Shown in pieces: positions 7,180 through 10,019 of a stretch of 40,650 nt of DNA. Every line of letters starts with the position of its first letter. The stretch's first letter is position 1. The position numbers and the translations under genes were made by a program. The stretch lies in the NCBI GenBank assembly GCA_041600695.1, contig JBFIJP010000002.1, forward strand, positions 1 through 40,650, written 5' to 3'. Under the pieces are notes generated by a model, which saw only the letters and a program-made list of their open reading frames with translations, did not search any database and was not told the DNA's origin. This DNA is from Thermoplasmatota archaeon (GTDB lineage Archaea; Thermoplasmatota; E2; JACPAO01; JAHFTW01).

Positions 7180-7246
7180 GCGCCGAACAAATCGCTCCAG
7201 CCGACTCGGCGCTCCGCGCCGATCGGCTGACCTCGAACCGTTGGGC
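7180..7246 (+). other. attC site 2
   Basis: GCGCCGAAC-AAATC-GCTCCAGCCGACTCGGCGC-TCC-GCGCCGATCGGCTGACC-TCGAACC-GTTGGGC. Confidence 0.85.
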
Positions 7247-7446
7247 GTCAGCCGCGCCTGGAGGAGATGCGATGTCGGCGACAACTGCCGGACTGCGTCC
7301 CTTCCCTCGGGAAACGCCGGCCGATTGCACATTCTCATAGCGCGGGAATCGGACGCCAGGCCTTGGTGGGATGGGGAAAGGCGAAATGGGCAAGAGGCAT
7401 ATAACGTCAAGTGCCGGGCGCTTGGACCGCGAATCCTGAATGGGTG

Positions 7447-8571
7447 ATGGGCGTCAGCCTCGCTCTCCTCGGGTCGATGACCGAGGCACTCCATCAGCTC
7501 ATCACCAACCCATGGTTCATCACCGCGAGCGGCATTGGACTCTTGGCCTGGTTCCGTAAGAAGCTGCTGGAGATTGGAAAGAGGGCGTGGTATTGGCTTC
7601 GCCTTCGACGGCGAACCGTGCCATGGGAAACGCTGCAACGGCTTTCACCGACGACCGTAGTAATTCACCATAATCTGACGGAAGGCTTCGCACCGGAGGA
7701 AATCGTTTTCCACTGGGAAGGTCGTTACCAGCCATCGGAGCCTTTGCGTGCCCTCCTAGATGCATGTCATGAGGAAATTGAGGTGGAGCGGGCGGCGGGT
7801 AGAGACCATTCGCACAATGGGCATCCCGCCGGCCTTAAGTCGTTCCGAATCGCCGCCGATGAGTTCGAGGTCCAAAAGCGCATCGAGATCCACCTCCAGG
7901 CGATTCGCTACGACGACACACGATGCATTGGCAAGATTCTAGACCAAGCGGTGCCTGGTTCCAAGCCGGAACAAACGTATAGAGAGAGGTACGCCACGGT
8001 CGATCTTCAATCGACGGCCCCACCAGAGCTTCCCAACCCGGTTGGCCTTGGCGTTTTGGTTGAGACATCGGACGGCTGGATGGTACTGTGCGAGCGGGAG
8101 GGGCGGACGGTTGTGTCTCCCCGAAAATTCAGCAGCTCGGTTGGCGAGGGGATGGTCACCGCCTTGGGACCGAACGGGGGGTTGCCTGGTGACCGTCGTG
8201 CTGACGGGCGCTTCGACATTAATGCCACGTTCAAGCGGGGCGCAGAAGAAGAGCTGGGCGCCACGGCGGAGGGTTTGGCTTCCCTTGGATTCGGCGGCAC
8301 CCCTTTCGACTTCGTATTTCCTGTCCGGTGGGTCGCATTCGTCGCCGCCTCGGACGCGCTCCAATTCAATTTCATCGGTTTCTGCCGGACGAAGCTTTCC
8401 AGGCGGGCCTTGGAGGATTTGCACACGTTCCGGTCTACGGACCGAGACGGAGAGCTACGGTTTGTCAAAGGTCCGCGCAATCTCTTGCAAAACATCGAGG
8501 CGAATAGGGGGCAGTACGCTAGCGCCGGTCCGCTAGTCCTGGCGTTGGCCCACCGAAGTCGGACCCCGTAG
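7447..8571 (+). CDS. N-terminally membrane-anchored protein with degenerate Nudix-like domain (cassette 3, gene 1)
   Basis: TM segment WFITASGIGLLAWF. C-terminal half has VGLGVLVETSDGWMVLCER... and a Nudix-box-like RGAEEELGA, but the upstream GX5EX7 half is not canonical. Confidence 0.5.
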   Translation: MGVSLALLGSMTEALHQLITNPWFITASGIGLLAWFRKKLLEIGKRAWYWLRLRRRTVPWETLQRLSPTTVVIHHNLTEGFAPEEIVFHWEGRYQPSEPLRALLDACHEEIEVERAAGRDHSHNGHPAGLKSFRIAADEFEVQKRIEIHLQAIRYDDTRCIGKILDQAVPGSKPEQTYRERYATVDLQSTAPPELPNPVGLGVLVETSDGWMVLCEREGRTVVSPRKFSSSVGEGMVTALGPNGGLPGDRRADGRFDINATFKRGAEEELGATAEGLASLGFGGTPFDFVFPVRWVAFVAASDALQFNFIGFCRTKLSRRALEDLHTFRSTDRDGELRFVKGPRNLLQNIEANRGQYASAGPLVLALAHRSRTP

Positions 8572-8580
8572 GGATGTGAT

Positions 8581-9837
8581 GTGGTGAGGCAACAACGCAT
8601 CGACGTTTTTGGGGACCATACTCTGCGGGGGACGGCTCGCAATCAGGGGTCCAAGAATGGGGCTCTTGCTCTTCTGGCGGCATCAGTGGCTTGCCGGGGC
8701 AGTTGCGTCTTCATCAATGTTCCTCGCTGCCGTGATGTTGAGGTTATGCTCCAGGGGCTAAGGAGCCAGGGTTGTCGGATCGACCACACCGCATCTCGAG
8801 TGGTGGTAAACGGCGCGGGTTTGGACGCAATTCCGGCGCTGGGGCCTTGGGCGACCCGCATCCGCGCGTCTGCCCAATTGCTCGGTCCTCTCGCTGTCAG
8901 GACGCGCCATTTCACGCTTCCCTTCCCGGGAGGCTGTCCAATCGGTCCGCGCCCGCTTGACATTCATGTAGAGGGTTTGCGCTCGCTGGGCGCTAGCGTT
9001 CGAACGTCCCTCTTTGGAATCGAGGTCAGTCATGCTGGACTGAATGGTGCCGACCTGCATCTTAGTTTTCCGAGTGTTGGGGCGACGACGAACCTGGTCA
9101 TTGCGGCGACCGCAGCGGAGGGGACTACCCGCATATCGAATGCAGCTCTGGAGCCAGAGATTGACGCGCTTTTGGAATTCCTCAATGCCGCGGGTGGCCA
9201 GGTTGTCCGGGCACCGTCCGGGGTAATCGAGGTAGAGGGCCCTACTTCCCTTGAAGGGGCGACAGCTCAGGTGATCCCTGACCGCATCGCGGCAGGCACT
9301 ATCTTGTTTGCCGGCGCAGGGTCTGGTGATCCAATTGAATTGACCCATGTGAACCCGCAACATATGACTGCGGTCCTGGAGGTCTTACGCCGACTAGGGG
9401 CGCATCTATCAGTCGGCGGAAACACGATTCGCATTATGCATGGACGCTTGGACGGAGTCGACGTTACCGCGTTGCCCTACCCTGGGTTTCCGACGGACCT
9501 TCAGCCCATTCTTACCGCGCTGTGCTGTAGAGCCGATGGCGCCTCGCGCATCATCGACAAGGTTTTCGACGAGCGCATGGGTTACTTAGAAGAACTGAAG
9601 AAGATGGGTGCTCAAGTCAGAACGGAAGGAAATGCAGCGCTCGTCACCGGCGGCCCTATTCATGGCGCCGATGTCGAAATGCATGACCTCCGGGGAGGTG
9701 CGGCTCTTGTCATCGGGGCACTGGGAGCAACGGGCAAGACGCAGATTGCTGGTGCGGCGGTCTTGGAACGTGGCTACGTCGGGCTCCCCGGGGTTCTCTA
9801 TGAACTTGGTGCCGACGTACAACTGTATGATCTATAG
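8581..9837 (+). CDS. murA: UDP-N-acetylglucosamine 1-carboxyvinyltransferase (MurA) family enolpyruvyl transferase (cassette 3, gene 2)
   Basis: QGSKNGALALLAA (Lys22 region), FPGGCPIGPRPLDIH (catalytic Cys plus RP.D.H), GFPTDLQ, LRGGAALV, LERGY. The order and spacing match MurA. It starts 9 nt after the upstream stop. Confidence 0.8.
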   Translation: MVRQQRIDVFGDHTLRGTARNQGSKNGALALLAASVACRGSCVFINVPRCRDVEVMLQGLRSQGCRIDHTASRVVVNGAGLDAIPALGPWATRIRASAQLLGPLAVRTRHFTLPFPGGCPIGPRPLDIHVEGLRSLGASVRTSLFGIEVSHAGLNGADLHLSFPSVGATTNLVIAATAAEGTTRISNAALEPEIDALLEFLNAAGGQVVRAPSGVIEVEGPTSLEGATAQVIPDRIAAGTILFAGAGSGDPIELTHVNPQHMTAVLEVLRRLGAHLSVGGNTIRIMHGRLDGVDVTALPYPGFPTDLQPILTALCCRADGASRIIDKVFDERMGYLEELKKMGAQVRTEGNAALVTGGPIHGADVEMHDLRGGAALVIGALGATGKTQIAGAAVLERGYVGLPGVLYELGADVQLYDL

Positions 9838-9950
9838 TCGCCGGGGAACGCAGCGGTGCACCGACGTAGGTCGTCTTCTGATCCGGATGCGCGTCTCATA
9901 ACCGTGCTGGACGGCTCCATCCTCAAAGAATCGCTTGTGCGAACCGGCCT

Positions 9951-10019
9951 GCCGCCCAACAAGTCGTTCCAGCCGACCCCTCCGCTGCGCTCCGGGGCGG
10001 CTGAACTCGACCGTTATCT
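9951..10019 (+). other. attC site 3
   Basis: GCCGCCCAAC-AA-GTCGTTCCAGCCGACCCC-TCCGCTGCGCTCC-GGGGCGGCTGAACTCGAC-C-GTTATCT. It lies inside the N-terminal extension of tracked ORF 9856..10752, which is therefore spurious. Confidence 0.85.

Follow-up and report, generated by a model that had tools for sequence, protein, structure and literature searches.

The window analyzed here, positions 1 to 40,650 of contig JBFIJP010000002.1 (40,650 nucleotides [nt]) in assembly GCA_041600695.1, deposited as a Thermoplasmatota archaeon, carries an array of integron attC sites. One gene cassette of this array (positions 7241 to 10013, + strand) contains two adjacent genes, encoding a NUDT22-like protein of the Nudix fold (gene A) and a divergent MurA-type UDP-N-acetylglucosamine (UDP-GlcNAc) 1-carboxyvinyltransferase (gene B). 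The best explanation of this arrangement is a mobile two-gene operon of bacterial ancestry packaged in one integron cassette. The pairing of the two genes is real and rare and is apparently undescribed, and each of its parts is of a known kind.

The two genes occupy exactly one integron cassette

An element of ~65 nt, AACAAGTC...GTTCGACCGTTRGGY, recurs in the window in a repeat search, and its five aligned copies are organized like integron attC sites: the R'' core ends in AAC, the hairpin is imperfect, and the R' core has the form GTTRRRY. A covariance model derived from these five copies of the window itself matches at positions 3668 to 3745, 7176 to 7255, 9948 to 10028, 10770 to 10844, and 12264 to 12338, all on the + strand and with scores of 64 to 91 bits. 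In addition, a partial sixth attC site lies at 14500 to 14553, adjoining an IS110-family transposase fragment, and nothing else across the 40-kb window rises above the noise of the model. In integron recombination, the cut in R' falls between its G and its TT. The upstream attC site (7176 to 7240, + strand; 68.1 bits, E of 3.9e-15), with which the preceding cassette ends, has ...GAAC as the end of its R'' core, an imperfect hairpin, and an R' region reading ...CCG/TTGGGC, in which the G is position 7240 and the TT starts at 7241. The cassette's own attC site (9948 to 10013, + strand; 63.8 bits, E of 4.9e-14), whose covariance-model match reaches 10028, ends in ...ACCG/TTATC with the G at 10013. 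The segment from 7241 to 10013 (2,773 bp) is therefore exactly one cassette, since it is bounded by the G/TT crossovers of the two attC sites (7240/7241 and 10013/10014), and these are the limits proposed for it in the first-pass annotation, which had been made from the nucleotide sequence and its open reading frames (ORFs) without database searches. A 2,818-nt Logan contig (run SRR29257386) is 100% identical to positions 7183 to 10000, with both of its ends inside the two attC sites; contig breaks within repeated attC sites are expected, and this contig thus adds no independent evidence.

Within the cassette, an untranslated leader (7241 to 7446, + strand) precedes gene A and contains the A/T-rich sequence CATATAAC at about 7396 to 7403, which may serve as a promoter; a promoter scan detected no sigma-70-like promoter on the + strand of this leader. 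Gene A stops with TAG at 8569 to 8571, and gene B, in the same direction, starts with GTG at 8581, leaving the 9-nt spacer GGATGTGAT (8572 to 8580, + strand), in agreement with the earlier description of two genes 9 nt apart in one cassette. The purine-rich AGGGA at 8570 to 8574 overlaps the stop codon of gene A and the first bases of the spacer and lies 6 nt ahead of the GTG of gene B. This operon-like arrangement suggests that the two genes may be translationally coupled.

No match to an integron integrase or tyrosine recombinase (Phage_integrase) was found among the large ORFs scanned in the window, and the array, with attC sites present and no integrase, is thus a cluster of attC sites lacking integron-integrases (CALIN), the commonest integron form in archaeal metagenome-assembled genomes (MAGs) (PMC9668308). 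It resembles the archaeal CALINs described by Ghaly et al. in 2022 (PMC9668308) in its same-strand attC sites without an integrase, its location on an archaeal MAG contig, and its cassettes rich in defense and toxin-antitoxin functions. The window has two compositional regimes, with a G+C content of 55 to 62% between 2 and 16 kb and of 63 to 72% in the flanks. The third-position G+C content (GC3) is 0.59 to 0.69 in the cassette genes versus mostly 0.75 to 0.88 in flanking genes with recognizable families, and this contrast indicates that the array is compositionally foreign to the backbone. Vertical inheritance of the MurA-like gene as a core gene of an archaeal clade, which had been considered earlier, is ruled out by its location in an attC-bounded cassette and by its GC3. 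No tRNA genes or Rfam families were detected in the window.

At least 120 public metagenome contigs contain an exact copy of the 20-mer core of this attC type, many of them in multi-attC arrays with up to 5 sites, and the archaeal array thus uses a widely distributed attC type. The median G+C content of the metagenome contigs with this type is 55% (loci L093 to L172, e.g., L143, L141, L107, L105, and L124). Homologs of any cassette protein of the window array were present in none of the 80 sampled metagenome loci with the same attC type, and no integrase was evident beside the arrays in these loci. In addition, no bacterial integron carrying the cassette of genes A and B was found.

Gene B is a divergent and catalytically complete MurA

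Gene B (8581 to 9837, + strand) encodes a protein of 418 amino acids (aa) with matches in Pfam, NCBIfam, and the Protein Data Bank (PDB). It matches Pfam EPSP_synthase (1.2e-71) and the NCBIfam MurA subfamily model NF006873 (402.6 bits, with a cutoff of 297), and it makes a borderline pass of the NCBIfam murA equivalog model TIGR01072 (393.0 bits, with a cutoff of 392.7). MurA chains in the PDB, such as Listeria MurA1 (3r38), are matched with an E value of 1e-82. Identity as AroA was excluded, the NCBIfam aroA model giving 89.9 bits against a cutoff of 287. The NikO/PolA-type enolpyruvyl-UMP transferases (PDB 4fqd) have the same fold and a UMP/UDP-linked acceptor but are far more distant from gene B than MurA is, and a NikO-type identity was also rejected, since the E value for NikO is 9e-24 versus 1e-82 for MurA.

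In an alignment of 28 sequences, gene B keeps the residues corresponding to K22, N23, R91, C115, R120, H125, S162-G164, R232, D305, F328, R331, D369, R371, and R397 of Escherichia coli MurA; the same residue columns are invariant across 26 database MurAs. The catalytic set (K22, C115, R120, D305, and R397) and the UDP-GlcNAc contacts (N23, R91, S162-G164, D369, and R371) are both complete. The motif SKNGA (residues 24 to 28, nt 8650 to 8664) aligns with E. coli K22, the active-site loop GGCPIGPRPLDIH (residues 117 to 129, nt 8929 to 8967, + strand) contains a Cys that corresponds to C115, the residue targeted by fosfomycin, and an Arg that corresponds to R120, and LERGY (residues 395 to 399, nt 9763 to 9777) aligns with R397. 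These three motifs had been named in the first-pass annotation as hallmarks of a catalytically intact MurA, and the presence of every residue checked, together with a score that reaches the murA cutoff, argues for that assignment. A fosfomycin-insensitive MurA, which was among the roles suggested at that stage, is unlikely and was rejected because the target Cys is kept; a dosage effect is the one form in which such a role is possible.

The closest homologs of gene B are P0003 (48% identity) and P0004 (45% identity), which lie in a conserved neighborhood of a housekeeping type with M16 peptidases, RNase HII, murA, and argCJBD. The named homologs are all bacterial, mostly from Bacillota, with identities of 40 to 44%, and the identities to all other MurAs range from 35 to 48%. 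Compared with Listeria MurA1 (3r38) and E. coli MurA (1uae), gene B is alike in its full-length homology, in all of the examined residues, and in reaching the equivalog cutoff, whereas it differs in its borderline score, its location in an archaeal integron cassette, and its Nudix-like partner; in addition, the ORFs scanned in the 40-kb window included neither murB nor any other mur gene. The sequence marks gene B as a MurA that is divergent, complete in its catalytic residues, and bacterial in ancestry, and the enzyme is predicted to transfer the enolpyruvyl group of phosphoenolpyruvate (PEP) to UDP-GlcNAc. Gene B also matches a PHROGs family without an assigned function (PHROG 25097, 331 bits) and has no match in PADLOC. 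A tblastn search of MurA against phage records returned matches of 36 to 38% identity, mostly on short unannotated contigs with a host-like MurA; these are probably host DNA filed as phage in GenBank and were therefore left unused.

Gene A is a two-domain Nudix-fold protein of the NUDT22 type

Gene A (7447 to 8571, + strand) encodes a protein of 374 aa from the ATG at 7447, and the alternative start GTG at 7411 would give 386 aa. As a single sequence it has no match in Pfam, NCBIfam, PADLOC, or PHROGs, gives only noise against PDB sequences, and has no tblastn match to plasmids. Among 1.84 billion cluster representatives, scanned exhaustively with HMMER, one close relative, P0122, was identified, with 46% identity over the full length, along with 15 remote relatives with E values from 1e-9 to 1e-3. 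A word-indexed protein search of 5.8 billion 90% clusters, with gene A and with the alignment of gene A and P0122, found no relative besides P0122, and a scan of 185,579 species genomes with the two-sequence alignment found none.

The conserved blocks of the family are HxxNG, TLRExY, GVxxxVxTSD, PGxxxxSVxEG, RRGxxEELG, and DxWE; in the family alignment, D209, D249, R264, E268, and E269 show no variation and E234 very little. The alignment also reveals a non-canonical Nudix box (8137 to 8262, + strand) composed of SVGEG, a 28-residue insertion, and RGAEEELGA, the last of which is residues 264 to 272 of the 374-aa form (nt 8236 to 8262). The canonical Nudix box GX5EX7REUXEEXGU has no regular-expression match in gene A, and Pfam NUDIX (PF00293) does not match gene A and matches 5 of the 16 family members, with a best E value of 0.0029. 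When the family profile is compared with PDB sequences, however, human NUDT22 is found with an E value of 1.7e-8, and the profile of the C-terminal domain alone finds it at 3.4e-6 over the whole Nudix domain. The box helix RRGxxEELG aligns with LQEICDEVNL of NUDT22 and with the canonical RREAREEL of Deinococcus DR0079, and the correspondence to the NUDT22 catalytic residues is only partial. Essentially all of the meaningful PDB matches are Nudix proteins or isopentenyl diphosphate isomerases of the same fold, the exception being two CRISPR Csy4 chains just below the E-value limit of 10 in the sequence search.

An AlphaFold2 model of gene A with the family alignment as input has a predicted local distance difference test (pLDDT) score of 86.5 and a predicted template modeling (pTM) score of 0.81. 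In a Foldseek search of the PDB with this model, six NUDT22 chains are on top (E of 1.3e-13, target-normalized TM score of 0.70, ~320 columns), and the next Nudix match, at 3e-6, is seven orders of magnitude behind. The model and the sequence profile together indicate that gene A is a two-domain, non-canonical Nudix protein of the NUDT22 type. The earlier description of a Nudix-like protein with a non-canonical upstream half is thereby sharpened, and the structure prediction proposed as a check on it returns a Nudix fold.

The likeness of gene A to human NUDT22 (PDB 5lor, 5lou, and 5lf9) extends across both domains, and both proteins have a long insertion within a non-canonical Nudix box. In contrast, the box reads QEICDEVN in NUDT22 and RGxxEELG in gene A, the identity is ~13%, and gene A carries ~60 additional residues at the N terminus, which form a hydrophobic and helical extension, and is prokaryotic and borne on a mobile element. 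Another Nudix enzyme that is co-encoded with a pathway whose nucleotide-sugar it can cleave is the GDP-mannose mannosyl hydrolase (WcaH/Gmm) of the colanic acid cluster. Gmm structures are among the weaker Foldseek matches of gene A, but Gmm belongs to another Nudix subfamily, acts on a GDP-sugar instead of a UDP-sugar, and has no MurA partner. NUDT22 has no Nudix box of the conventional form and hydrolyzes UDP-glucose to UMP and glucose-1-phosphate (PMC10101856, PMC5688067), and Mg-dependent hydrolysis of UDP-glucose and UDP-galactose is known in this type for human NUDT22 alone (PMC10101856). Because it is of the NUDT22 type, gene A is tied chemically to the UDP-sugar substrate of MurA.

The N terminus of gene A contains a hydrophobic helix, NPWFITASGIGLLAWF (7507 to 7554, + strand), followed by a strongly basic stretch, RKKLLEIGKR...RLRRR. 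The hydrophobic segment of residues 18 to 36 is weak, with a Kyte-Doolittle 19-residue maximum of 1.27, and the equivalent segments of P0122, P0124, P0125, P0132, P0134, P0135, and P0136 reach 1.6 to 2.4; the N-terminal helices 4 to 20 and 22 to 54 are modeled at low confidence. The transmembrane helix and membrane tether claimed in the first-pass annotation are thus not secure, and a membrane anchor with a cytoplasmic catalytic part is no more than plausible.

Remote relatives of gene A are fused to XRE-type helix-turn-helix (HTH), DUF4062, and PNP_UDP_1 domains. One of them, P0127 (locus L091, 7726 to 9278), which shares ~22% identity with gene A, combines an XRE-type HTH with a NUDT22-like module, and on its upstream side it overlaps an XRE gene; its neighbors on a 1.8-Mb contig include genes for SSB, FtsK/SpoIIIE, Xis, and an integrase, with no MurA. 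Nudix genes occur in actinomycete integrative conjugative elements, in which Pif is the pSAM2 immunity factor (PMC2440964). P0127 adjoins an XRE gene within an integrase/Xis/FtsK-SpoIIIE/SSB element and in layout matches the description of these Pif/Nud genes (PMC2440964). For most distant gene A relatives, which lie on contigs of 1.4 to 5.5 kb, informative neighbors are absent.

The pairing recurs at a sister locus

P0122, the sole other close relative of gene A among ~15 billion proteins, lies on L004, a contig of 5.9 kb (run SRR28285715) that also carries a murA gene. This murA is on the same strand as P0122 and ends 1.05 kb upstream of it, and between them, on the opposite strand, is a murB gene, which is genuine (347 bits, with a cutoff of 259) and starts ~130 bp from P0122. 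The MurAs of L004 and the window are sisters in 100 of 100 neighbor-joining bootstraps. They have in common the derived motif GPxAxRIR, in place of the PY/E-D-L-x-x-MR of other MurAs, and a one-residue deletion (GGP-), and their TIGR01072 scores are 393 bits (window) and 425 bits (L004), compared with 514 bits for P0003. The identity between the two loci is 46% for the gene A partners and 42% for the MurA partners. A random gene would be expected to lie within two genes of murA in about 1 of 1,000 cases, and given this low chance and the fact that both partners have co-diverged, the linkage has the look of an ancestral and functional one. The two genes therefore appear to form a conserved, horizontally acquired module, and the joint conservation that the first-pass annotation had called for is seen in the only other locus with a close gene A relative.

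No site of the window type was detected by the attC model in L004 or in the other related loci. Upstream of the sister murA, positions 28 to 141 of L004 contain two copies of CCTGGAAATCGAAGAGCGCTGA in nested hairpins with CGATTTCCAGG; these hairpins, which are not an attC site of the window type, could be a repetitive extragenic palindromic (REP)-like or regulatory element. A literature search returned no co-encoded pair of MurA and Nudix genes, the combination is not in PADLOC, and the main text of Ghaly et al. (PMC9668308) makes no mention of MurA. The cassette of genes A and B thus appears to be undescribed, in line with the initial statement that no described system was known to have this pairing.

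The cassette resides on an archaeal contig

The ribosomal protein uS2 ORF of the window (32454 to 33107) scores 267 bits with the eukaryotic/archaeal-type model TIGR01012 (cutoff of 211.5) and 95 bits with the bacterial model. The H+-pyrophosphatase adjoining uS2 is 77% identical to that of the Thermoplasmatota MAG JBFIDG010000024, in which uS2 lies upstream of the H+-pyrophosphatase in the same order and with 83% identity. Other flanking genes match families named from Haloferax proteins, i.e., SAMP2, HVO_A0114, and HTH_HVO_0163_N. By these genes the contig is archaeal, as had been supposed for the MurA-like gene, and it probably belongs to Thermoplasmatota. The archaeal type of the uS2 excludes a bacterial contig mislabeled as archaeal. 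Murein is not expected in this host. Archaea almost entirely lack MurA and MurB, and their rare MurA-like genes have no assigned role (PMC10117817). After the Thermoplasmatota MAG, the next-best matches of the H+-pyrophosphatase (33139 to 35307, + strand) are from Deinococcota (65 to 68%), well ahead of other archaea (59 to 60%), and this pattern may reflect an interdomain transfer of the gene.

Other features of the array

The first cassette (2224 to 3666, + strand), which ends at the attC site of 3668 to 3745, encodes a 480-aa SEFIR/TIR protein (PADLOC bSEFIR, 364 bits). The start of the array may be marked by a GTTATGT-containing copy of the attC 5' arm, in inverted orientation, at 2103 to 2127; just ahead of the array, a 24-nt unit, GGGCCGGGTGGGCCGCACGGCTAA, is present three times at 1793 to 1939. 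A perfect 113-nt direct repeat at the contig start (1 to 113 and 227 to 339) may be an assembly artifact. The next cassette (~3737 to 7240) carries two genes, with ORFs at 3779 to 5392 and 5468 to 7060 (+ strand) that encode proteins of 537 and 530 aa. Neither has a match in Pfam, PADLOC, or PHROGs, and the 530-aa protein also has none in NCBIfam; the latter has a signal-peptide-like N terminus and a weak hint of a beta-propeller (PQQ_2).

Downstream of gene B, the longest ORF of a DUF4145/HepT-like protein (9856 to 10752, + strand) crosses the attC site of 9948 to 10013. Its real start is probably the ATG at 10099 in the next cassette, and automatic annotation would be likely to misplace it. 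The gene of a 250-aa TIR protein (11070 to 11822, + strand; TIR_2 at 3e-25 and PADLOC TIR models) shares 4 nt with that of a hydrophobic 125-aa protein (11819 to 12196, + strand) in the same cassette, and the two could form a pair of a TIR protein and a membrane effector. The last cassette (12629 to 14553) encodes a weakly matched AbiEii/DUF6036-like nucleotidyltransferase of 201 aa and contains a very basic ORF of 123 aa. The IS110-family transposase fragment (13963 to 14505, - strand) abuts the partial attC site, which recalls an attC-targeting insertion of the IS1111 type.

Proposed mechanism and alternative roles

In the mechanism that we propose, MurA (gene B) would convert UDP-GlcNAc and PEP to enolpyruvyl-UDP-GlcNAc, and gene A, probably held at the membrane by its N-terminal helix, would cleave the pyrophosphate of a UDP-sugar to give UMP and a sugar-1-phosphate, by analogy with NUDT22. 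On the most economical view, both enzymes would then act on the same UDP-GlcNAc-derived pool, the substrate of the hydrolase being the MurA product in the window or UDP-N-acetylmuramic acid (UDP-MurNAc) where MurB is present, as in L004. Because gene A would hydrolyze a UDP-sugar of the MurA pathway, the reversible MurA step would be turned into an irreversible diversion of UDP-GlcNAc and PEP with release of UMP, and in an archaeon this module would be accessory and stand outside murein synthesis. Taken as a whole and leaving the gain to the cell unspecified, a MurA and a UDP-sugar hydrolase acting on a shared pool is a scheme for which we consider the arguments evenly balanced.

Several points weigh against this scheme or against the module on which it builds. 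The substrate is deduced from a relative of ~13% identity, and a Gly replaces the first Glu of the canonical RE in nearly the whole gene A family, so hydrolytic activity is not assured. The pair is known from two loci only, and the gene order differs between them, being gene A and murA in the window and murA, an opposite-strand murB, and the gene A relative in L004, which is a short contig. The sister relationship of the two MurAs comes from neighbor joining with uncorrected distances and two long branches, and the shared derived residues are few, with 4 identical co-deviations at conserved columns versus 0 to 3 in controls. No integrase was found among the large ORFs scanned, and no Pc promoter or recognizable promoter was found, which makes expression of the cassette in the archaeon uncertain. 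In addition, a constitutive drain on UDP-GlcNAc and PEP would be costly, and regulation or a different substrate would therefore be expected.

Among the other roles, it is unlikely, though far from negligible, that the pair is a bacterial wall or antibiotic-tolerance cassette and a passenger in the archaeon, in which an extra MurA would provide more target for fosfomycin or for phage MurA inhibitors and the hydrolase would remove UDP-MurNAc, a feedback inhibitor of MurA, or trim precursor pools. The murB gene of the sister locus and the wide occurrence of the attC type in environmental metagenomes agree with such an origin, as do the documented exchange of cassettes across domains (PMC9668308) and the near absence of MurA from archaea (PMC10117817), and in the passage of PMC10352792 that cites Couce 2012, overexpression of murA alone gives fosfomycin resistance at a clinical level and low cost. 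However, the enzyme itself is not resistant because it keeps the target Cys, and the cassette was in none of the 80 sampled metagenome loci of this attC type and in no bacterial integron that was found. A role as an antiviral or abortive-infection module, in which infection would trigger the depletion of UDP-GlcNAc (and PEP) or the destruction of UDP-sugars that viruses need for the glycosylation of DNA or virions, in parallel with the known depletion of NAD+, deoxynucleoside triphosphates, and ATP, has a rather small chance of being correct. Most of the cassettes of the array are of a defense type (bSEFIR, TIR, DUF4145/HepT-like, and the weak AbiEii-like nucleotidyltransferase), integron cassettes carry defense systems (bioRxiv 10.1101/2024.07.02.601719), and defense and toxin-antitoxin cassettes are common in archaeal integrons (PMC9668308), but this guilt by association is weak because integron cassettes are functionally unrelated by design. 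The fusions of distant gene A relatives to XRE-type HTH, DUF4062, and PNP_UDP_1 domains and the mobile element around P0127 point in the same direction as the neighboring cassettes. In contrast, neither gene matches PADLOC-DB v2, in which the neighboring cassettes do match bSEFIR and TIR models, or the PHROGs defense models, the cassette has no sensor or regulator, and nucleotide-sugar depletion is not among the described defense mechanisms.

A broader version, in which a NUDT22-like protein and a dedicated MurA form a triggered conflict module that drains or marks the UDP-GlcNAc pool or UDP-GlcNAc-capped RNA against viruses or mobile elements, by a logic that prokaryotic NUDT22-like proteins at large would share, among them the Nudix proteins encoded by actinomycete conjugative elements, is speculative and improbable. 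It is very unlikely that the pair modifies archaeal envelope glycans, with enolpyruvyl-GlcNAc or, once reduced, its lactyl ether entering S-layer glycans or lipoglycans and the membrane-bound Nudix-like protein supplying sugar-1-phosphate or setting precursor levels, the latter being the role proposed for GDP-mannose hydrolase in colanic acid clusters. The intact UDP- and sugar-binding residues of gene B, the possible membrane anchor of gene A, and the suggestion that archaeal MurA-like genes have wall or polysaccharide roles that are yet unassigned (PMC10117817) would suit such a function; however, a glycosyltransferase, MurB, flippase, and phosphotransferase are all missing from the cassette, the module has a foreign composition and is extremely rare, and hydrolyzing an activated sugar opposes glycan assembly. 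Least probable is an action on UDP-GlcNAc-capped RNA, in which MurA would modify the cap and the NUDT22-like protein would remove UDP-sugar caps. Although UDP-GlcNAc-RNA caps are modified in vitro by the MurA, MurB, and MurC enzymes of E. coli and are removed by the Nudix enzyme Nudt5 (PMC11162767), and NUDT22 has been put forward as a candidate decapping enzyme for UDP-sugar caps (PMC11253889), MurA is much slower on 3'-extended substrates and the authors doubt a role in vivo (PMC11162767). In addition, neither protein has an RNA-binding domain, and a membrane anchor would be odd in a decapping enzyme.

Implications

The combination of genes A and B is new, whereas its components, i.e., the MurA family, the NUDT22 branch of the Nudix fold, and archaeal integron cassettes, are known. 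The general importance of the finding is limited unless the wider family shares its function, because only two loci were found among ~15 billion proteins. An intact enzyme of the murein pathway brought into an archaeon by an integron cassette would support integrons as a route of transfer across domains. If the pair is a MurA dosage cassette, it would represent an environmental reservoir of fosfomycin tolerance, and if it is a nucleotide-sugar device for defense or exclusion, it would add a new class of metabolite to depletion-type immunity. Gene A defines a prokaryotic branch of the NUDT22 type that had not been annotated before and has members on mobile elements, and its link to a dedicated MurA lineage, together with MurB in L004, points the substrate hypothesis for this family to UDP-GlcNAc-derived sugars.

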